Shown: positions 2,685 to 54,277 of the stretch, in pieces
Layout: each line of letters begins with the position of its first letter
Numbering within the stretch: position 1 is the stretch's first letter
Virus record (IMG/VR): IMGVR_UViG_3300033066_002242
Location: 1 to 64,000 of that record
DNA length: 64,000 nucleotides
Origin: a virus
Taxonomy: Duplodnaviria; Caudoviricetes
Reading direction: 5' to 3' (one strand)
Made by a program: the position numbers and the translations under genes
Notes under the pieces: model-generated
Told to the model about the DNA's origin: nothing
Databases searched by the model: none
The model's input: the letters and a program-made list of their open reading frames with translations, nothing else

Positions 2685-2723
2685 GGACAGCAGTCCTGAA
2701 ATGGGGTTGGAGATATCGGCTCT

Positions 2724-2731
2724 AGTTTAGC
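2724..2731 (-). promoter_or_regulatory. Candidate late promoter -10 element (GCTAAACT)
   Basis: 40 nt upstream of ATG 2684; TAAA[AC]T recurs upstream of other minus-strand genes. Confidence 0.5.
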
Positions 2732-2854
2732 CCAGCCACGCCGGGTCGGGTAGGGATTTGCGGCTGCGCTCCCATCTACGGTTGCCGGGAGGAAGGGTGA
2801 CCACGATCAGGCTCCGAAAAGCTCTGGATGCCGCTTTTCCTGGCCGGAGAGGGC

Positions 2855-3205
2855 CTGCTACAAGAACTACAAAAAAACCATCAACTACTACAAAAAAAAG
2901 TAGCAGCTGAAATCGTTGCAGCACAAGGGCTGGGAGCGGATAAATACTCTCTTACTACTACTACTATTACTTTTATTTAAATATATATATAAGAAAGAAT
3001 AACCTACCATTTTACAAGGTCTTTTAATGCGAATGATTCTCATTTAGAGGGGAGGGGAAAAACGTGTATCTTATATAGTGTTTAATTTTTTTTTGTAGTT
3101 CCTGTAGTTCTAGTAGCAAATCGTCTGCAGCCCTTGCGCTGCAACGGTTTCAGGTACTATTTTTTTGGTTTTGGAAATGTAGCAGAACTACAAAAATGTA
3201 GCACC
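2855..3205. other. Putative replication origin: AT-rich core bracketed by 26-bp inverted repeats, with ACTAC/GTAG iterons
   Basis: 2907-2932 and 3128-3153 are reverse complements at 24/26 positions; many ACTAC(A)/(T)GTAG units in both orientations; very AT-rich 2940-3100. Confidence 0.6.
3026..3044. promoter_or_regulatory. Fur-box-like 9-1-9 palindrome
   Basis: AATGCGAAT-G-ATTCTCATT, one mismatch from a perfect AATGAGAATnATTCTCATT. Confidence 0.5.
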
Positions 3206-3303
3206 CACCCACCAACTCCTAAAAGGACCCCGAAATGGCTGATCATTTTCTGAGCATTTGATTTGGCTATTTTTTAGGCTAAAACCGATTCCCTTCTCTA
3301 TAT

Positions 3304-3429
3304 CGCGTGCGCGCGCCCGCATTGGTATCTTTTCGCGATGATTTAGCTGCCCGGAAAACTCACCCCTTCACAGCGTGCGATACCTGTGATAACCGCGCGC
3401 GCGCCCGCCCGCATTGGTATCTTTCCGCG
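3304..3429. repeat. Two 23-bp direct repeats, each preceded by a (CG)n tract
   Basis: GCCCGCATTGGTATCTTTYCGCG at 3315-3337 and 3407-3429. Confidence 0.85.
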
Positions 3430-3456
3430 TTGAACATTTTTTGACCAGGCGCTCCG

Positions 3457-3742
3457 TGTCCGAAAATCACAATTCCCACACAGACTGTGCGGTCTATTTG
3501 TCCGAAAATCACAATTGTTGACTAATTCACTCAACTACTCCGTGTCCGAAAATCACAATTCCCACACAGCGCGTGTGGTCTACTTGCTCACAAAGTGTGC
3601 TGCACGTCTCGCCCGAAGCCGTGGGAATGATTCTCATCCGCATTGACGTGGCGTGGTCATGTCCGAAAATCACAACTCCCACATGCTTTGTGTGGTCAAT
3701 ATGTCCGAAAATCACAATTTCCTACCAAATCACTCAACTACT
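3457..3742. repeat. Five 16-bp iteron-like direct repeats TGTCCGAAAATCACAA
   Basis: Exact copies start at 3457, 3499, 3543, 3660 and 3702. Confidence 0.9.
3620..3638. promoter_or_regulatory. Second Fur-box-like site
   Basis: Shares the core GAATGATTCTCAT with the 3026 site. Confidence 0.4.
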
Positions 3743-3804
3743 GCGCCATAGCCGACTTGGCCCTTTGCTCAGCATCTCCATAGCTTTTAGCTATGGCGGA
3801 CTCC

Positions 3805-3861
3805 TCAATTCCGACCCCGCGAATGGGTATAAGTTTTACAGAGAAGAACCATACCGGTTCT
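3805..3861 (+). promoter_or_regulatory. Early promoter repeat copy 1 with leader hairpin
   Basis: TCAATT-N15-GGTATAAG, then AGAACC-atacc-GGTTCT. Confidence 0.85.
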
Positions 3862-3879
3862 GACTTTTGGAGGTGTGCC

Positions 3880-4140
3880 ATGGGCACTCGGTACCTAGTG
3901 TCCCGAAAGGACATCGAGGAAAATCTCCGCCTCACCGTCGAGAAGACGGGAGTGGAGTACTACGGCTACGACGAGGAGGGAGAAGTCGTAGGCATTGAGG
4001 CCTTGAACGGATTCAAGGTCGCCATTGACGGGTGGCTGTTTGAGAGCCACTTCGGGATGTGGTTCATGGGCCCAGAGGTCGGCAAGCCCGACCTCGACGC
4101 CTTTTTGAAAGCCCACGGCGTCAAGCCGGACTGGTGCTAA
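3880..4140 (+). CDS. Hypothetical early protein (acidic)
   Basis: GGAGG RBS before ATG 3880; lies between promoter and terminator. Confidence 0.85.
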   Translation: MGTRYLVSRKDIEENLRLTVEKTGVEYYGYDEEGEVVGIEALNGFKVAIDGWLFESHFGMWFMGPEVGKPDLDAFLKAHGVKPDWC

Positions 4141-4145
4141 ACCAC

Positions 4146-4169
4146 GGCCCATGGATGGGCCTTTTCTTT
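4146..4169 (+). terminator. Intrinsic terminator
   Basis: GGCCCA-tgga-TGGGCC followed by T tract. Confidence 0.8.
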
Positions 4170-4181
4170 ACCCCGAAATCT

Positions 4182-4236
4182 TCAATTCCACCCCTGCGAA
4201 TCGGTATAAGTTTTATAGAGAAGGGCAATAACGCCC
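4182..4236 (+). promoter_or_regulatory. Early promoter repeat copy 2
   Basis: TCAATT-N15-GGTATAAG, then GGGC-aataac-GCCC. Confidence 0.85.
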
Positions 4237-4258
4237 ATACATACTCGGAGAAATTCTC

Positions 4259-4750
4259 ATGAACACACTGACAAGCTTCAAGCATGAAGGCGTGCGTTTT
4301 ACCCGTACCAGCGAGGGAACCTTCGCGGACGGCGTCCTCATTCGCGCCGATATGGGCATGGATTCGGACAACGATACCTGGCGGCGCTGGGCCAAGCGGG
4401 CCTACCGCCATGACCAGTGGAAAAAAAGCATGGACGCTGGCAAGGCGGCCGCCCTGCAGCAACTCGCAGACCGCGAGAACGCCAAGTGGGCGAGCCTGGA
4501 TGAGGAGGAGAAGGGCATCATGGTCAAGGCTGCTGCCATCCAGCGCAAGCTGGACGCTTGGGAGGAGTCCCGCGCGGTGGGTCTGGTGTCATCTCTGCCT
4601 CTGACCGTTCGCACTCATAATGCGCTGACCAAGGCTGGCATCTTGGAGATCAGCGACCTGGCGGCAAAGACGGACCTGGAGCTGCTGAAGCTCCCTGACA
4701 TGGGTCGCAAGTCCCTGCTGGAGGTCCGGGACGCCATCGCCGCGCTTTGA
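4259..4750 (+). CDS. Protein with C-terminal RNA polymerase alpha-CTD-like domain
   Basis: LPLTVRTHNAL...ISDL...ELLKLPDMGRKSLLEVRD aligns with RpoA LELTVRSANCL...IGDL...ELLKTPNLGKKSLTEIKD. Confidence 0.85.
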   Translation: MNTLTSFKHEGVRFTRTSEGTFADGVLIRADMGMDSDNDTWRRWAKRAYRHDQWKKSMDAGKAAALQQLADRENAKWASLDEEEKGIMVKAAAIQRKLDAWEESRAVGLVSSLPLTVRTHNALTKAGILEISDLAAKTDLELLKLPDMGRKSLLEVRDAIAAL

Positions 4751-4756
4751 AGAACT

Positions 4757-4780
4757 GGCCCCTGGATGGGCCTTTTCTTT
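4757..4780 (+). terminator. Intrinsic terminator
   Basis: Near-identical to the 4146 hairpin plus T tract. Confidence 0.75.
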
Positions 4781-4792
4781 ACCCCGAAATCC

Positions 4793-4850
4793 TCAATTCC
4801 ACCCCTCCGAATGGGTATAAGTTTTACAGAGAAGAACCCTATCGGTTCTT
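4793..4850 (+). promoter_or_regulatory. Early promoter repeat copy 3
   Basis: TCAATT-N15-GGTATAAG, then AAGAACC-ctatc-GGTTCTT. Confidence 0.85.
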
Positions 4851-4868
4851 GCGTTGAGGAGCCAGGTC

Positions 4869-5513
4869 ATGAACCCGGAGCTTGCTTTTGATGTAGCCCG
4901 GGAAGCCATGCTGGCTCTCGGGTTTGAGGTGGTGGACAAGGGAATGCCTACCTTCGCTATTCATGAGTCCCTGCGCGGTGGCGGTTCAGGGGTGTATAAC
5001 CGTATTGAGCACAGCGTTAAAGTCGCTGCTCAGTACTTCAAGGGAGCCGATGGCTGGTCTACGTTGGTACACGAAATGTGCCACGCCCAACAGTCAGAGG
5101 CAGTCCTCGACCATGGCCCCTGCTACTACCTGCAGGACGGGTCAATGGACTACCGCTTGTACTGCGAGTCCTTGGCTGAATGCCAGGCGCGCGCCGTACA
5201 GGCGACACTGGACCACGGGGTGGACCTGGTCCGTGATGTCATCGACATGGCGGGTGGAGTGCAGGCCGCCGACGTGCTGTGGACTGGCATCCGCGCGCTG
5301 AAAAAGGCGTACGGTGACCAGGCCATGGACGTCCTGATGGACCTCGTCCAGGTCACGGGCGCCCGCGGCAAGGCACTGTGGTATTGGTGCATGTGGGCCC
5401 ACGACGCCAAGCGCGACGGCTTGTCCAAAGCGGGCAAGCCTGAGCACCTGGCGGTGTCGGTCCGCAAAGGCCTCAACGCCAGGATGGCGGGGGCGTACGG
5501 GGTACGGAAGTAA
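4869..5513 (+). CDS. Zincin-like (HExxH) metallopeptidase-fold protein
   Basis: GVY...STLVHEMCHAQQ with a downstream E(CQA); GAGGAG RBS. Confidence 0.65.
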   Translation: MNPELAFDVAREAMLALGFEVVDKGMPTFAIHESLRGGGSGVYNRIEHSVKVAAQYFKGADGWSTLVHEMCHAQQSEAVLDHGPCYYLQDGSMDYRLYCESLAECQARAVQATLDHGVDLVRDVIDMAGGVQAADVLWTGIRALKKAYGDQAMDVLMDLVQVTGARGKALWYWCMWAHDAKRDGLSKAGKPEHLAVSVRKGLNARMAGAYGVRK

Positions 5514-5519
5514 CAACAC

Positions 5520-5540
5520 AGGCCCTTCGGGGCCTTTTTT
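5520..5540 (+). terminator. Intrinsic terminator
   Basis: AGGCCC-TTCG-GGGCCT-TTTTT. Confidence 0.9.
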
Positions 5541-5544
5541 ACAG

Positions 5545-5599
5545 TCAATTCCGACCCCCCGAATCGGTATAAGTTTTATAGAGAAGGGCACTATCGCCC
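5545..5599 (+). promoter_or_regulatory. Early promoter repeat copy 4
   Basis: TCAATT-N15-GGTATAAG, then GGGC-actatc-GCCC. Confidence 0.85.
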
Positions 5600-5619
5600 A
5601 TACCAATTGGAGAATTCTC

Positions 5620-5985
5620 ATGAAGCTCGAACAACTCCATTACGACGGCGTCAAAGCCGTCATCGAAGGCATCCACGCCGGCAACGGCATGGCCCCTGAA
5701 AAGGCCATTGAACTGGCGGAGAAGGTGCGCCGCTTGGCGCGCCACCAGATGCTAATGAACACCGTGGACGCCGATGCGGCCATGAGTGCCCAGCGTGACG
5801 CATCCTTCGCTCTTAACCAGGCAAAGGACTTCATGGAAGACTACGACCGCGGCCCCCGCTCTCAAGAGGAGTATGAGGAGTGGGCTGCTATCCCCAAGCA
5901 CGTCCTCTGGTCGTGCGTCCGCTCCATCTACGCATCCCTGCGGTCCGCCCCGGAAGGCGAAGTCATCTTCGCCACCCTGTTCTAA
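5620..5985 (+). CDS. Hypothetical early protein
   Basis: GGAG RBS; flanked by promoter and terminator. Confidence 0.85.
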   Translation: MKLEQLHYDGVKAVIEGIHAGNGMAPEKAIELAEKVRRLARHQMLMNTVDADAAMSAQRDASFALNQAKDFMEDYDRGPRSQEEYEEWAAIPKHVLWSCVRSIYASLRSAPEGEVIFATLF

Positions 5986-5991
5986 CCCCCC

Positions 5992-6012
5992 GCCCCCTCG
6001 GGGGCATTTTTT
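5992..6012 (+). terminator. Intrinsic terminator
   Basis: GCCCC-ctcg-GGGGC followed by T tract. Confidence 0.75.
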
Positions 6013-6052
6013 AGCCTGAAACAAGGTACAAGCCTTTGTGGAAAAACCCACA
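6010..6052 (+). promoter_or_regulatory. Variant early promoter (TTTAGC-N9-GGTACAAG) with leader hairpin
   Basis: Same spacing as the 18431 site; TGTGG-aaaaac-CCACA hairpin follows. Confidence 0.55.
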
Positions 6053-6072
6053 CACCAATTGAGGAATAAAAC

Positions 6073-6642
6073 ATGAACGTAGTCACCTTCACCCCCGCTT
6101 CAATCTCCACCCGCAGCCCCTGGTTCACCGTATTCCCGGAACTGGACCGCCTCAAGGCCGACATCGGTCACCTGTTCCCATTCACTCCTGTCCCGGTGGC
6201 GTCCATCGTCCCCGAGTACGGGGCCCTGACCGCCATCTGGACCCTCCGGGCCTCGGAGGCAGATCCTGCCAAGGTGCTCCACAGCCTGCTGGACGCAGGG
6301 TGGGGCTACCTGCTGACCAAGGACTGCCTCATCGGCACCCAGGCGCAAGTCCTCATACAGTCCCTGTACGGGGTTGGCGGCCTGCAGCGGACTGAAGGGC
6401 TGTATGAGAAGGTCCGTGCAGAGTACGAATCGTTGGGCCCTATGCAACGGAAGGACCCGGAGAAGTACGAGTTGCTGGCCAAGTTCTACAGGGCTTGCCT
6501 GGAGGCGTGCCGTGCGCACCCTTCCAGGAGCTATGCAGGGCCTGACAGCAACGCCATGACTTGGGACGGCGTGTACAACGCCGCCTTCGAGATCAACCGT
6601 CTGCACGACGGACTGATCTCCAGGGTTCTGGAATCCCGGTAG
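6073..6642 (+). CDS. Hypothetical protein
   Basis: GAGG RBS; terminator follows. Confidence 0.85.
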   Translation: MNVVTFTPASISTRSPWFTVFPELDRLKADIGHLFPFTPVPVASIVPEYGALTAIWTLRASEADPAKVLHSLLDAGWGYLLTKDCLIGTQAQVLIQSLYGVGGLQRTEGLYEKVRAEYESLGPMQRKDPEKYELLAKFYRACLEACRAHPSRSYAGPDSNAMTWDGVYNAAFEINRLHDGLISRVLESR

Positions 6643-6647
6643 CCCCC

Positions 6648-6676
6648 GCCCCGCCGAGTGGCGGGGCTTTCTTTTT
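6648..6676 (+). terminator. Intrinsic terminator
   Basis: GCCCCGCC-gagt-GGCGGGGC followed by T tract. Confidence 0.85.
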
Positions 6677-6688
6677 ACGGAGAAAACC

Positions 6689-6973
6689 ATGCCCAACTCT
6701 TTCCGTGGCAACTCGGAATCCGTGCTGCTGGCACAGCTGACCCTGCTGCACATCCTTACCGAACAGGAGGACTACCTCACCACTTCCAAGCTGGTGAAGG
6801 CCATGGAAGACAGAGGGGTCCCGGTCTCCCTGCGCCGTATCCAGCGCTACATGAACACCTTCGTCTTTATGGGTCTGGCACGTGTCCTGCCGGGAGATGC
6901 CCGTACCAACTACGGCGGCCGACGATATGTGAAGTCCGGCAAGCTGGCCTTGATCTGGGAGCCTGAGTCATGA
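6689..6973 (+). CDS. Stand-alone winged-helix DNA-binding protein resembling the N-terminal HTH of WYL regulators
   Basis: QLTLLHIL...LTTSKLVKAMEDRGVPVSLRRIQRYM. Confidence 0.65.
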   Translation: MPNSFRGNSESVLLAQLTLLHILTEQEDYLTTSKLVKAMEDRGVPVSLRRIQRYMNTFVFMGLARVLPGDARTNYGGRRYVKSGKLALIWEPES

Positions 6974-7428
6974 GCCACACCAGTTTTCCTGCCTGGATGG
7001 AGCCTTGCTTGACGGTGCGCAAGGGCGACGTTGCACTGGTCAACCTGTCTCCGGAAGCACTGGCGAAGGCAAGGACACTGGCCAACGTTGACCAGGAGCC
7101 CCGCAACCGGCTGTCCCGCAAGAACGTGCGGCGCAGCGTCATGCACTACTGGAACGCCATCCCCTACGCCTGCCTGACAGGCCCCTACGACCCGGACCGT
7201 CGGGACGTCTACTGGAAGAAGCGCAGCGACCGCCTGACCTTGCAACCGCGACTATGGCCTAACCGCCACGGTATCCGCGCGGTGGCCAAGCCCTTGGGAT
7301 GGAACTGGGCCAAGGTGCGCGCCAACATCGAGTTCAACCTGGAATACGAACGCCGCCACTCCCCTGAAACCCCCTTTCAACGCCTGGACCGCATCCAGGC
7401 ATCACTTGCCTCGGTAGAAACCCCATGA
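6970..7428 (+). CDS. Hypothetical protein
   Basis: ATGA-coupled on both sides. Confidence 0.75.
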   Translation: MSHTSFPAWMEPCLTVRKGDVALVNLSPEALAKARTLANVDQEPRNRLSRKNVRRSVMHYWNAIPYACLTGPYDPDRRDVYWKKRSDRLTLQPRLWPNRHGIRAVAKPLGWNWAKVRANIEFNLEYERRHSPETPFQRLDRIQASLASVETP

Positions 7429-7826
7429 AAGATTGCTACTCCACCGACAACGAAGAGTTCCACACCGGCGATCTTCACGATGCCATCCGCAACCTCGGCC
7501 TCCAGGCAGGGGACACGGTGTGGATGGGAGAGAGTCACCAAGCAAAGGCTTCCGGATGGGTGGACGCCGATGACGTCCTGGAAACGCTCCAGGAACGGGC
7601 AGATGCCGACTTCGGGCAGATGGTCGGAGACGACTACCCGGAAGTCAGCGATGAGGCCAAGGAGGAACTGAACACCTTCCTGGCCAACTGGCTGGACACT
7701 CACTGCACTCCTCCGTTTTACCACGTCCGCAACTCGGAAGAACGCACCATCACCCAAGAGGAGATCGACTATGCCATACGCCCTGCCCGCCCAGAAGTTC
7801 TCCCACACCGTCATGATGCGGGGTGA
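7425..7826 (+). CDS. Acidic hypothetical phage protein
   Basis: ATGA overlap; D/E-rich. Confidence 0.8.
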   Translation: MKDCYSTDNEEFHTGDLHDAIRNLGLQAGDTVWMGESHQAKASGWVDADDVLETLQERADADFGQMVGDDYPEVSDEAKEELNTFLANWLDTHCTPPFYHVRNSEERTITQEEIDYAIRPARPEVLPHRHDAG

Positions 7827-8022
7827 GGACTTGAAGGTAGGTCAAACCATCAACTACTGGATCAATGAGGGTCGGGGCGTCGAAATCTACGGCTTCAGCG
7901 CCTATACCGGGACGCTGCTCAGCCCGGCACGGACCGCCTTGGTTCGCTATGTGAAAAACGGGGACAACCGCGCCACGGAGATCGTGGTGCAGGACGAAGA
8001 GCATTACGAGGTGATGTCATGA
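7813..8022 (+). CDS. Hypothetical protein
   Basis: Fills the gap; stop overlaps next ATG. Confidence 0.65.
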   Translation: MMRGEDLKVGQTINYWINEGRGVEIYGFSAYTGTLLSPARTALVRYVKNGDNRATEIVVQDEEHYEVMS

Positions 8023-8591
8023 AAGACTTGAACATTGATTGGCCGCTGTTCCACCGGCAAAAAGCCATGCTGGTGGCCATGGCAAACGACGAGGACCGTT
8101 TGACGTCAGAGGTGGAAGTCCTCGACGGCGTCATCAACTTGATGGACGGCATTCAGGATGCGCTGGAGCCTGAGAAACCAGACGGCGGAGGCATGGTCAA
8201 GCTGGAGGTGTCCACACTGGAAGGAGCGGCCCTGGACTGGGTGGTGGGCTCCATCGAGGGAGAGACGGACAACCGGCTAACGGTGTTTCGCCGAGAGGAC
8301 CACGTAGGCAAGCCTGTAGAGCGGGAGACCGAGGCCGGAAGCTACCAGTACGAGTGGTGGTCGCCGTCACGAATCTGGGCGCAGGGCGGGGTGATCCTGG
8401 AGAGGGAAGGACTGCAGATGACAACTTCTCGTGGGTCCTGGGTCTCCAGCAGTCCTCAGTCTGTGGAGAGGGACGGCTGCCGAAGCTACTACTTTGCGGA
8501 AGGCCCTACTCCCCTAGTGGCGGCCATGCGCTGTTTCGTGGCGTTTAAGCTAGGCTACACCGTCGAAGTTCCCGAGGAACTCCTGTCATGA
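8019..8591 (+). CDS. Small helical domain fused to a DUF2591/NinX-like domain
   Basis: LEGAALDWVV...WSPSRIWAQGG...GPTPLVAAMRCFVAFKLG; internal GGAGG-C-ATG at 8193. Confidence 0.75.
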   Translation: MKDLNIDWPLFHRQKAMLVAMANDEDRLTSEVEVLDGVINLMDGIQDALEPEKPDGGGMVKLEVSTLEGAALDWVVGSIEGETDNRLTVFRREDHVGKPVERETEAGSYQYEWWSPSRIWAQGGVILEREGLQMTTSRGSWVSSSPQSVERDGCRSYYFAEGPTPLVAAMRCFVAFKLGYTVEVPEELLS

Positions 8592-8863
8592 AAAACACCG
8601 CAACCCCTGTTCCTCCCTTGACCCTGCACCGCATGGAAGCAGTCCCATCCTCCCCTGCCTTTTACTACCTGACGGACGCCGGTGGTGACTGCGTAGCTAT
8701 CCGAGGCTTGCTGGGGCTTGTGTCTGTGACCGGCAACCGCGCCAGAATACTGGCCATCAAGGCTGCCCTGGAATCTCGCAGCCTCTGCGGGACCGTCTGG
8801 AAAAACGGCGAACTCGTGGACATCCATCCTCACATTGACCTTATGACACCGGAGCAACTATGA
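8588..8863 (+). CDS. Hypothetical protein
   Basis: ATGA overlaps. Confidence 0.7.
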   Translation: MKNTATPVPPLTLHRMEAVPSSPAFYYLTDAGGDCVAIRGLLGLVSVTGNRARILAIKAALESRSLCGTVWKNGELVDIHPHIDLMTPEQL

Positions 8864-9273
8864 ACACAGTTAACCTTGAAGTCGCGGAATTGACGGGCGC
8901 TGCCCTGGACTGGGCTGTTGCCGGGTGCATCCCGGACGGCGCCCGGGTCATCTACTTTGACGAGGACACCGGTGAGCCTCTCTACTACGACGACTGTGCG
9001 GGTAACCAGCAGTTTTCCCCTACCACCGACTGGGGTCAGGCGGGGCCGCTTCTTGTTCAGCACGAGATTGGGGTGCAGCCGGTGTACCAGGACGGGGTAT
9101 TCCACTGCTGGAACGCCAGGGTACGCAGCCTAGAGTACGACGAGTGCGGGGAGGCTGTAGAGGGGTCTGACGCCGACTCCTACGGTCCTACCTACCTTGT
9201 CGCTGCCATGCGGTGCCTGGTCAGGTTGAAGATGGGTCCTGCCCTGGACATTCCAGGGGCATTGGCAACATGA
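8860..9273 (+). CDS. DUF2591/NinX-like protein
   Basis: ELTGAALDWAVA...FSPTTDWGQAGP...GPTYLVAAMRC. Confidence 0.8.
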   Translation: MNTVNLEVAELTGAALDWAVAGCIPDGARVIYFDEDTGEPLYYDDCAGNQQFSPTTDWGQAGPLLVQHEIGVQPVYQDGVFHCWNARVRSLEYDECGEAVEGSDADSYGPTYLVAAMRCLVRLKMGPALDIPGALAT

Positions 9274-9716
9274 AAACCATCCCCGTTGCAGAACTGTCCG
9301 GCCGCGCCCTGGACTGGGCCGTGGCCATGGCCCAAGGCTACAAGCCCGCCCGCTGGGTAAAGCGGGAGTACGGCCGGGAGCTTGTCATCGCTCCTGAGCG
9401 CACGTTCAGCGCCATGCTGATGACCGAAGACGGCCGAAGCCTGACTTGGCGTTGCTTCAGTCCTACCCAGGACTGGGCGCAGGGCGGGGTGCTGCTGGAC
9501 CACTACAATATCAACCTGCGTCAGGAGACCCTGGCGTACCGCACGGAAAGCGGCAAGAAAGGGACGCAGCACCTGGGGTGGGTGGCATACAAGACCCCGC
9601 ACCACTACTACCTGCAGCCTGTCCTGTACCGCGGCAGCAGCAAGTTGGAGGCGGTCATGCGTTGCCTGGTGGGGAGCACTTTGGGAGAAAGCGTGGAGGT
9701 GCCGGATGGAATATGA
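9270..9716 (+). CDS. DUF2591/NinX-like protein
   Basis: ELSGRALDWAVA...FSPTQDWAQGG...AVMRC. Confidence 0.8.
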   Translation: MKTIPVAELSGRALDWAVAMAQGYKPARWVKREYGRELVIAPERTFSAMLMTEDGRSLTWRCFSPTQDWAQGGVLLDHYNINLRQETLAYRTESGKKGTQHLGWVAYKTPHHYYLQPVLYRGSSKLEAVMRCLVGSTLGESVEVPDGI

Positions 9717-52447: not shown

Positions 52448-54277
52448 TCAGTACCTGCCGTTTTCGCCTTCACCGAAGGCCTTGCCGAGAATGTAGGGAG
52501 TAATAGGGTCAGTGGACCGAGTCGGAGACTCATGCGCCATGGCCGCTGCTTCTATGATACTTGATTTTAGGTTAGACGACGCCAAACGGGATATCCAATT
52601 GGGGTCCAGCAGCTTGGATTGCTTCACGCCCGTGGCTATCGGGTCGACGATCATGCCGCTTTCGCTGATCGGAACCTCCGTAACACCTTTCTTATTCAGG
52701 TCCAGGATGTGGTACGCATCCAGCCGGGTGCCTGGCATGAGCTCCCCGATACGCCGGGACAGCACCTTACCGGCGGCGCGCTCGATGGGCACCATACGGT
52801 GGTCAGCATCCAGGATGTGCTGGATCTGGTTGACGTTGACCACGTCTCCCGGCAGGTAATCGCTGTCGCCGGGGTCGCGGATGGTCACGTACTTGGCCAT
52901 GTTCTTGGCGATGACGTCGAAGTGCCGGGGGTCGTACCCTTGACCGTACACTTCCCGCATCTTCTCGGCCAGGTACTTGCGACCGGCGCCATGGCCGCGA
53001 AGCTCGACCAGGTGCTTGGGATTGGGGGTGCCTTCCGCCAGCTGCTGGCCAGCGTAGACCTCGTCTCCGTGCTTGACCAGGACGCCCTGGTGACGATCAA
53101 CGAAGTGGCTGTGGTTGCCAATCCAGATATGAGAGTCGCCCAGGGCGGTCTTCTCGATCTTGGTGACCTTGCCTGGTACAGACGCCAAAGTGGCTTCATC
53201 CAGGAAGTTCTCCGGGATGGTCAGGATGTTACGGGCGGACTCCAAGGTGCCGGCCGTGCGCTTGACGCCGGAACCTGCCGTACCGCCTTGGTGCTTGGAG
53301 CCGATAACCGCCTGCGTCAGGCCTTCCGATATGGACTGGACACCGATGACGCCCACGTTCTCGCCGATAGGAGGGAATTCTCCGCGGGAGTCATGGCCGT
53401 AGCACTTCTGACAAATGCCTTCCGGGGCCTCACAGGTCTGCGGGTTGCGCACGACGACCATCTTCTTGCCGCTGTCCACCGCGTCCTTGTACTTGGCGTC
53501 GGTAAACACGGAGTCCGTGCCTGCTTCCACCATGCCGATGATCCGCTTCTTGTCAGAGATGGGGACATCGATGCCGTGGTGGGTCTTGCAGTCGTGGATC
53601 GTGATCACCTCATGAAATGCCGCCGGGATGATCTTCTTGAACAGCGCCCCTGGCTCCGAGGTGGCCATCTGTGTCTTGATGGTCGCCGCCCGGCCGCCGT
53701 AGGACATGGCCATGTGCTCTGCCGGGGATAGGCCCTCGGCAAAGGAGTGGCGAATCGGCAGAGGGATGGGAGTGCCCTCAATGTCGATCGACATCATGGG
53801 GCTGAACGTACCCTGACCGAGTTGCATGGGGTTGCCGCGCGCGCCGGTCATCGCCATAAGTCCCGCAGTGGACCCCTTGCCAACCATGTGCTTGAGGTTG
53901 ATCTTCTGGGAGGTCGACACGTAGGAGGAGGCCACGTCTTCCACCATGGCGTTCCGCTGCGACTTGGAAAGCTTGGGGTTGTTGGAGACCTCATTGATCT
54001 TGTCCGCGAACTCTGCCAGCAGCACATGGCGTTCAGGAGAGTCGTTCTCGTAGTCCGTCAGCGGCGTGGAGAACCCGTTAACCGTGGCGGTGTGGAAGAA
54101 CAAGTTGGACAACGCCTGGATGGACTCGTGCGCCTTGTCGCCGCCGTGCTTGATGCACAGGGACATGAGGTGCGCTACGCCAGGCTTGTCCAGCAGCATA
54201 TTCGGGTCGTAGTACTTCTGCGCCTCTTCGGGCAACAGGCTTTTGACCAACAAGCTACCGGCAGTGGACATGTACAC
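52448..54277 (-). CDS. Phage multisubunit RNA polymerase beta-prime subunit, C-terminal part
   Basis: GARGN, SFAEGL, bridge helix, DC.T..G, C...GICQKCYG Zn site, GENVGVI..QSISE..TQ......H.GG trigger loop, jaw, RHFDVI, switch regions. Confidence 0.93.
   Translation of the reverse strand: MYMSTAGSLLVKSLLPEEAQKYYDPNMLLDKPGVAHLMSLCIKHGGDKAHESIQALSNLFFHTATVNGFSTPLTDYENDSPERHVLLAEFADKINEVSNNPKLSKSQRNAMVEDVASSYVSTSQKINLKHMVGKGSTAGLMAMTGARGNPMQLGQGTFSPMMSIDIEGTPIPLPIRHSFAEGLSPAEHMAMSYGGRAATIKTQMATSEPGALFKKIIPAAFHEVITIHDCKTHHGIDVPISDKKRIIGMVEAGTDSVFTDAKYKDAVDSGKKMVVVRNPQTCEAPEGICQKCYGHDSRGEFPPIGENVGVIGVQSISEGLTQAVIGSKHQGGTAGSGVKRTAGTLESARNILTIPENFLDEATLASVPGKVTKIEKTALGDSHIWIGNHSHFVDRHQGVLVKHGDEVYAGQQLAEGTPNPKHLVELRGHGAGRKYLAEKMREVYGQGYDPRHFDVIAKNMAKYVTIRDPGDSDYLPGDVVNVNQIQHILDADHRMVPIERAAGKVLSRRIGELMPGTRLDAYHILDLNKKGVTEVPISESGMIVDPIATGVKQSKLLDPNWISRLASSNLKSSIIEAAAMAHESPTRSTDPITPYILGKAFGEGENGRY

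Follow-up and report, generated by a model that had tools for sequence, protein, structure and literature searches.

The gene at positions 4259 to 4750 (+) encodes a 163-residue protein, P0001, whose tail is a genuine RNA polymerase (RNAP) α-subunit C-terminal domain (α-CTD), with a match far beyond chance, attached to a β-plus-helical module unrelated to RpoA. We tentatively favor, as one possible reading, that P0001 would be a free α-CTD-type binder of AT-rich DNA competing with the host α-CTD at UP elements. The window analyzed covers the initial 64 kb of a 95,555-bp IMG/VR virus contig (G000), for which CheckV estimated a completeness of 66%. The reading frame starts with ATG, has protein-level homologues (P0014, P0022, and the product of L008:7914-8279), and shows a GC3 of 0.78, as is usual for coding regions in G000. 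It is preceded by a ribosome-binding site, GGAG (4247 to 4250, +), located 8 nt before the ATG, and an equivalent GGAG is found in L002, L003, and L008.

The α-CTD, a domain of the helix-hairpin-helix (HhH) type, covers residues 108 to 163 (4580 to 4747, +) and was identified by Pfam, phmmer against the PDB, Foldseek, and VIA. Residues 110 to 160 matched Pfam RNA_pol_A_CTD (PF03118) with an E value of 1.8e-13 and 50.4 bits, the gathering cutoff of this family being 23.8 bits, and in a genome-level PF03118 search of G000 the gene scored 51.9 bits. When P0001 was compared with all PDB chains by phmmer, about 45 α subunits were listed, and residues 110 to 162 aligned to residues 257 to 309 of Escherichia coli α with an E value of about 1e-8 and 47% identity. 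HHH_5 (PF14520) reached 16.8 bits against a cutoff of 27; this subthreshold score reflects nothing beyond the general HhH likeness of the α-CTD segment. Besides the α-CTD, P0001 had no Pfam, PHROG, or NCBIfam match.

Homology to RpoA was confined to the CTD by hhalign, and the full-length RpoA model TIGR02027 scored 41.8 bits against a cutoff of 227.8. No α N-terminal domain (α-NTD; PF01000/PF01193) was detected by Pfam in P0001, in the 95.5-kb contig, or in the complete sister genome G001, in agreement with the preliminary description, which had proposed that the domain is fused to an unrelated N-terminal part and that an α-NTD is absent. NCBIfam rpoA models reach further N-terminally in P0014 and in the L008 homologue, which raised the idea that the helical region corresponds to the linker of RpoA or to the final helix of its NTD; the CTD-only hhalign result ruled this out. 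P0001 therefore shares family and fold with the α-CTD of RpoA (PF03118; PDB 1LB2, 3N4M, 3N97, and 3K4G) and differs from RpoA in having no NTD, no linker homology, and no residues past α position 310, where its chain terminates.

The HMMER alignment sets an offset of +147 between P0001 and E. coli α numbering. At this offset, all five DNA-contact residues claimed beforehand are present: R118, N121, G149, K151, and S152 of P0001 correspond to R265, N268, G296, K298, and S299 of α. The equivalent of N294 is Asp147 in P0001 and Asn in all three homologues. Residues D259 and E261 of α form the "261 determinant," which contacts σ region 4; in P0001 these positions are occupied by Ser112 and Pro114, and they are unconserved among the homologues as well. 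The segment equivalent to E. coli residues 285 to 291 (TEVELLK) reads TDLELLK and is acidic in all four family members, as would suit a protein-partner decoy, in which the free CTD titrates class I activators, NusA AR2, or Spx-like factors. We regard such a decoy as quite improbable, because no RpoA is closer than about 45 to 47% identity, far under what would be expected for mimicry of a specific host surface, and because the σ-contact residues are lost. Moreover, residues 315 to 318 of α belong to the CAP-contact patch, and the P0001 chain ends ahead of them.

An AlphaFold2 (AF2) model of P0001, built on an 18-row alignment (A2), had a mean pLDDT of 91.3, with values of about 93 to 96 for the CTD and 91 to 97 for two long helices. 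The CTD was modeled as a compact domain of four helices, which Foldseek superposed on 8y5t, 1lb2, 3n4m, 3n97, and 3k4g with an rmsd of 0.5 to 0.9 Å over 54 to 56 residues; the DNA-bound E. coli α-CTD structures (1lb2, 3n4m, and 3n97) are among these. In VIA alignments, α-CTDs gave Z scores of 10.2 to 11.4 and other HhH/SAM-like domains scored lower. Structure prediction had been suggested as a check on the fold, and both searches returned α-CTD structures on top; together with the PF03118 match, this substantiates the α-CTD fold claimed for the C-terminal ~55 residues.

The N-terminal module starts with a β-meander at residues 1 to 35 (4259 to 4363, +; strands at residues 5 to 9, 12 to 17, 20 to 23, and 26 to 30), as seen in the AF2 model and the alignment. 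According to the alignment, the meander is shared with P0014 and missing from P0022 and the G001 homologue. It is followed by two long helices at residues 38 to 79 and 82 to 106 (4370 to 4576, +), identified from the AF2 model and from the invariant columns of alignment A1. An Arg/Lys/Trp-rich stretch lies within the long helices at residues 40 to 57, and residues 78 to 100 carry the family signature A-x-L-(T/D)-E-E-E-(K/R)-x-I...A..I...L.A, an LxEEE helix hairpin. The preliminary description had the domain fused via a coiled coil; the prediction of two long amphipathic helices partly supports this, and these might pair within one chain or between chains. Pfam, PHROGs, and the ESM Atlas (queried with residues 1 to 108) revealed no family or fold relative of the N-terminal part; in the ESM Atlas there was no usable feature match, and the structural neighbors were weak (TM ≤0.51). 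Full-length Foldseek and VIA lists of P0001 were filled by the CTD and so reflect that domain rather than the N-terminal module. A homodimer prediction with two copies of P0001 on alignment A2 scored 0.36, the mark being 0.42. The N-terminal module is probably an oligomerization or docking part.

To collect homologues, 1.8 billion representatives were searched exhaustively with HMMER, and 885 matches were obtained at an E value of ≤1e-3. The top ranks are held by long proteins with up to 11 to 12 tandem α-CTD repeats (P0002, P0003, P0004, and others), whose scores are summed across repeats. Only P0014 and P0022 align beyond the CTD. P0014 (170 residues) is 37% identical over residues 6 to 163 and has the same architecture as P0001, while the alignment of P0022 (124 residues), which has no β-meander, starts at residue 39. 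A pattern scan of IMG/VR added the 121-residue homologue of G001 (L008:7914-8279), giving a family of four members that is confined to one lineage of phages carrying their own RNAP. The equivalents of R265, G296, and K298 are invariant in these four proteins and nearly invariant across 18 phage α-CTD proteins, whereas those of N268 and S299 vary among the homologues; the Arg/Lys-rich N-terminal helix is kept in all four. The best RpoA CTD identity to P0001, in the PDB and among the 1.8 billion representatives, was about 45 to 47%, which is an interphylum distance and leaves a recent capture of the domain from a host rpoA unsupported. Megablast of positions 3000 to 9000 against GenBank phages gave no match, tblastn of P0001 against phages retrieved only bacterial rpoA in contaminated or mislabeled records, a word-index homologue search returned only P0001 itself, and PHROGs held no family for either P0001 or the G001 homologue.

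The IMG/VR scan also disclosed about 14 to 15 other viral loci encoding small proteins with one α-CTD, usually C-terminal. Most of these proteins are 66 to 255 residues long, with varied N-terminal parts, and their genes lie in nonstructural regions. In addition, BFVD contains several phage proteins to which UniProt gives the name "RNA polymerase alpha subunit C-terminal domain," from uncultured Caudovirales (A0A6J5M7I6 and others), Mycobacterium phage Mithril, and Rhodococcus phage Finch; these names are automatic, and the proteins, like those of the IMG/VR loci, resemble P0001 in being small, at about 105 to 255 residues, with one α-CTD and a variable N-terminal fusion. The N-terminal modules of other phage α-CTD proteins are unrelated to that of P0001 (some match phrog_2201/20565), and their CTDs are 33 to 52% identical to its CTD. 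Bacterial multi-α-CTD proteins (P0002, P0004, and others) likewise use the α-CTD as a module outside RpoA, with per-domain identities of 35 to 45%, but they are long, repetitive, and cellular and have no N-terminal module in common with P0001. As a side observation, cellular proteins with 8 to 12 tandem α-CTD repeats (P0002, P0003, P0004, and others), one of them on a 3-Mb contig, dominate α-CTD searches. A functional study of any phage α-CTD homologue was not found in the searchable literature. Phage α-CTD proteins thus appear to be visible in databases yet unexplored, and the P0001 family appears to be a new architectural variant among them.

The phage that carries P0001, which is large and uncultured, has a transcription apparatus of its own. 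Two open reading frames of G000, one of 1,594 codons (70001 to 74785, −) and one of 609 codons (52448 to 54277, −), match phage "RNA polymerase beta subunit" PHROGs and divide one β-subunit profile between them; on these matches, they are predicted to encode a bacterial-type polymerase composed of a β-β′ fusion and a β′-C subunit. The nearest named phages are Salmonella phage Arash, whose fusion protein is 47% identical over 95%, and Vibrio phages D69, D148, and D181. In the Arash virion, mass spectrometry showed β and β′ to be among the most abundant proteins and revealed a σ factor as well (PMC10585845). In G000, a 307-residue σ70-family protein of the RpoS/RpoD type, with regions 2 and 4, is encoded beyond the window at 83527 to 84450 (−), and its gene is co-oriented with the structural genes. 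The sister genome G001 (144,252 bp, with terminal repeats, rated 100% complete) has an RNAP fusion 72% identical to that of G000, one clear σ, and one α-CTD gene. Since the fusion and σ were found and an α-NTD is absent from both genomes, the lineage has a bacterial-type polymerase without a recognizable α, and the α-CTD gene is the sole α-related sequence in G000 and in G001.

This arrangement raises the question of whether P0001 serves the phage enzyme itself, as a trans-acting α-CTD whose N-terminal module would dock on the α-less polymerase while the CTD anchors upstream DNA or meets activators. Such a role fits a bacterial-type RNAP and σ70-family factor that have no α even in the complete G001, with the α-CTD gene as the only α-related sequence, and a conserved T-tract/ACCCCGAA block found between −37 and −59 in the strongest promoter copies could be read in its favor. 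Nevertheless, we consider it rather unlikely. Arash and Vibrio phage D69 share this RNAP layout but gave no PF03118 match even at an E value of ≤1, the residues equivalent to the σ region 4 contacts D259/E261 are lost, and the N-terminal module is variable, with the β-meander present or absent. Furthermore, four other phages with α-CTD fusions, all four of the genomes tested among the other IMG/VR loci, are devoid of a multisubunit RNAP and hence of an enzyme of the G000 type. A stricter form, in which P0001 would be a dissociable stand-alone α-CTD "subunit" docked on the enzyme or on σ, is in our estimate unlikely; we know of no RNAP for which such a split-α architecture has been described.

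The absence of the gene from Arash marks it as accessory. Most of its neighbors in G000 belong to a block of small genes without homologues in G001, and the gene itself lies about 9 kb into the nonstructural arm in G001 versus about 1.5 kb in G000. A kept gene in an otherwise hypervariable block is therefore a member of the accessory block and not a core polymerase component, and placement in a hypervariable small-gene block is typical of host-takeover genes.

The α-CTD gene forms a self-contained monocistronic unit consisting of a promoter-like element, a 5′ stem-loop, the ribosome-binding site, the coding sequence, and its own terminator. The terminator scan placed the intrinsic terminator of the preceding gene at 4146 to 4169 (+; stem-loop at 4146 to 4161 plus TTTTCTTT), that is, at about −59 to −37 relative to the promoter of the α-CTD gene; in L003 and L008/G001 the homologous promoters are likewise preceded by the block CCTTTTCTTTACCCCGAA. 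The putative phage-specific promoter (4181 to 4210, +) comprises TTCAAT (4181 to 4186), a spacer of about 16 to 18 nt, and GGTATAAG (4203 to 4210), and was recognized from near-identical copies at G000 positions 3826, 4203, 4814, 5566, 17676, and 67817. Directly after it comes the transcribed 5′ stem-loop GGGC-AATAAC-GCCC (4223 to 4236, +), to which hairpins in L003, in L008, and at other G000/G001 promoters are related. The intrinsic terminator of the α-CTD gene, also found by the scan, lies at 4757 to 4780 (+; stem-loop at 4757 to 4772 plus TTTTCTTT), and the next promoter copy, with GGTATAAG at 4814, follows immediately. Four such promoter-gene-terminator units are arranged in tandem at 3826 to 6000, and all four family genes have the shared promoter type with a 5′ hairpin ahead and a terminator after.

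The + strand of G000 carries 14 copies of the octamer GGTATAAG and the − strand none, with 0.9 expected per strand, and in G001 its distribution between strands is 24:1. In the window, the sites are at 3826, 4203, 4814, 5566, 17676, 18446, 25530, and 27488 (+); beyond it, they are at 66827, 67817, 78686, 83427, 90582, and 93446 (+) of G000. All 14 copies lie upstream of + strand nonstructural genes. The consensus of 38 sites is ttcAatt-N-GGTATAAG-N-tAGAGA, and about 16 of the sites have TCAAT or TCAAC 16 to 17 nt upstream together with the conserved tAGAGA just downstream. A canonical σ70 scan left the GGTATAAG sites uncalled because the −10-like hexamer (TATAAG) ends in G rather than in the near-invariant T (−7). 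Owing to the same missing T, both the host holoenzyme and the phage polymerase with its own σ are candidates for recognizing these sites. The α-CTD gene carries the promoter class of the nonstructural arm, and in G001 it lies about 9 kb into that arm; the label "immediate-early," given to it beforehand, is at best presumptive.

Other genes were also noted. The next monocistronic early unit (4854 to 5513, +) encodes a protein of about 214 to 219 residues in which an HEMCH (HExxH) motif is present; DUF6782, a putative metallopeptidase family, matched it weakly and below threshold (E = 0.003). Three P22 NinX-like paralogues are located at 8019 to 8591, 8860 to 9273, and 9213 to 9716 (+); two match PF10765 (E = 1.8e-17 and 4.6e-13), and the third, at 9213 to 9716, is seen only by tblastn to 8019 to 8591 (31% identity, E = 2e-9). 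On L003, which is part of the genome of a related phage, the α-CTD homologue is directly followed by a gene (L003:680-898) that encodes a 72-residue stand-alone piece of a family A DNA polymerase (PF00476, E = 9e-17, profile positions 151 to 222 of 381). Its product would thus be another small early protein corresponding to part of a cellular-type enzyme.

Short stem-loops right after promoters are found in the window at 3847 to 3863, 4223 to 4236, 4835 to 4851, and 5586 to 5599, with equivalents in L003 and L008, and take the form GGGC-(6 nt, A..AxC)-GCCC or GAACC-(5 nt)-GGTTC. Stabilization of mRNA 5′ ends or the binding of a protein are conceivable roles. In a further reading, P0001 would be an RNA-directed factor, with its Arg-rich helix acting on the 5′ stem-loops like a λ N-type arginine-rich motif and its CTD acting on the transcription machinery in an antitermination-like manner. 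The helix is conserved in all four homologues, and every early unit has a short stem-loop at its start and a terminator at its end; nonetheless, this reading is highly improbable, given that residues 40 to 57 resemble λ N-type antiterminators in composition only, that the 5′ hairpins present in the phage transcripts resemble copies of one another and not covarying sites, that 5′ stem-loops are common mRNA stabilizers, and that a nut-like organization was not seen.

Across the 38 phage promoters there was no AT enrichment at −40 to −60, a result that rules out UP elements as a general feature of these promoters and speaks against the docking of P0001 on the phage enzyme. The T-tracts at some promoter copies are parts of upstream terminators. 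AT-rich DNA is concentrated elsewhere. A noncoding region of 1.2 kb at 2690 to 3880 of the window is 63% AT, compared with 41% for the genome, and contains the repeats TGTCCGAAAATCACAATT (five copies at 3457 to 3720) and CGCGCGCCCGCATTGGTATCTTT (two copies). The A/T tracts of G000, a genome of 59% GC, are concentrated at 2870 to 3440 and 90270 to 90550, both noncoding and the former 0.4 to 1.4 kb upstream of the α-CTD gene; a 136-bp block at 3055 to 3190 recurs with 90% identity at G000 90414 to 90549, just upstream of another GGTATAAG promoter. The AT-rich elements at 2690 to 3880 and at G000 90200 to 90600 may be origins or control regions.

These regions supply candidate sites for a serious, if less probable, alternative in which P0001 would regulate the phage's own DNA by binding AT-rich control regions or GGTATAAG promoters without competing with host α, so as to shut off early genes, turn on a later class, or function at an origin. 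The α-CTD might then be joined in DNA binding by the basic helix that is kept beside it in the family. Consistent with such a regulator, the A/T tracts occupy two noncoding regions that share sequence, and α-CTD fusion genes elsewhere occupy typical regulator positions, for example, directly before terS/terL in L009 and among recombination or replication genes, beside RecE/RecT in L022 and between SSB/exonuclease and an uncharacterized gene in L020. The α-CTD, however, is a low-specificity minor-groove reader, and no operator repeat was identified that would be both linked to the gene and shared by G000 and G001; the motif GTAGCA showed no genome-wide enrichment and was ruled out as such an operator.

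Competition with the host α-CTD for UP-element DNA is made plausible by the invariance of the R265, G296, and K298 equivalents in the family, and P0001 probably binds AT-rich promoter DNA, judging by these residues. As we envisage it, the gene would be a monocistronic accessory gene in the nonstructural (early-class) arm of an Arash-like phage of about 144 kb, and its product would be a small nucleic-acid-binding protein in which a lineage-specific N-terminal module (optional β-meander, basic helix, and acidic-turn helical hairpin) bears one free α-CTD. Through its kept minor-groove contact residues, the domain would bind AT-rich DNA as the α-CTD does on UP elements; on AT-rich sites upstream of host promoters, P0001 would compete with the α-CTDs of the host polymerase, and UP-dependent host transcription, for example, of rRNA, would fall. 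Phage transcription would be exempt because the phage has its own ββ′/σ polymerase without α and promoters without a general UP element.

Known phage strategies converge on the same contact. R265 is needed for UP-element and CRP contact and is the target of ADP-ribosylation by T4 Alt/ModA (PMC2988021), and gp67 of Staphylococcus phage G1 inhibits rRNA promoters by blocking the contact between α-CTD and the UP element (PMC3694059); the α-CTD/UP pathway is therefore an established phage target. Moreover, the existence of α-CTD fusions in phages without an RNAP of this kind points to a target on the host side or the DNA side. On the other hand, several points count against competition at UP elements. 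A single α-CTD binds DNA weakly. The Asp at the N294 position and the variable N268 and S299 equivalents among the homologues would weaken the case, as would the interphylum distance of the domain from every RpoA found and the finding that Arash and Vibrio phage D69 have such a polymerase and lack the gene. In addition, the α-CTD is common in non-RpoA bacterial proteins, including tandem arrays, and hence it may be no more than a generic DNA-binding module whose target lies elsewhere.

If P0001 does compete for UP-element DNA, the target that we propose it shares with Alt/ModA and gp67 would be early host transcription dependent on UP elements and α-CTD. Alt/ModA and gp67 show no apparent relation to P0001 in sequence or fold, and the likeness would be one of function only: they modify the host enzyme covalently or bind its σ, whereas P0001 would place a copy of the domain on the DNA site. 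No study of a mimicry-type free α-CTD phage protein was found in the searchable literature; a free domain copy would, if the reading is true, represent a third, mimicry-based phage route against the α-CTD/UP contact, beside the chemical (Alt/ModA) and steric (gp67) ones. P0001 also bears on how an α-less bacterial-type RNAP handles upstream promoter DNA. Because small α-CTD fusions are widespread in viral metagenomes, elucidating a single one would provide an annotation for an entire class of phage "dark matter" genes.
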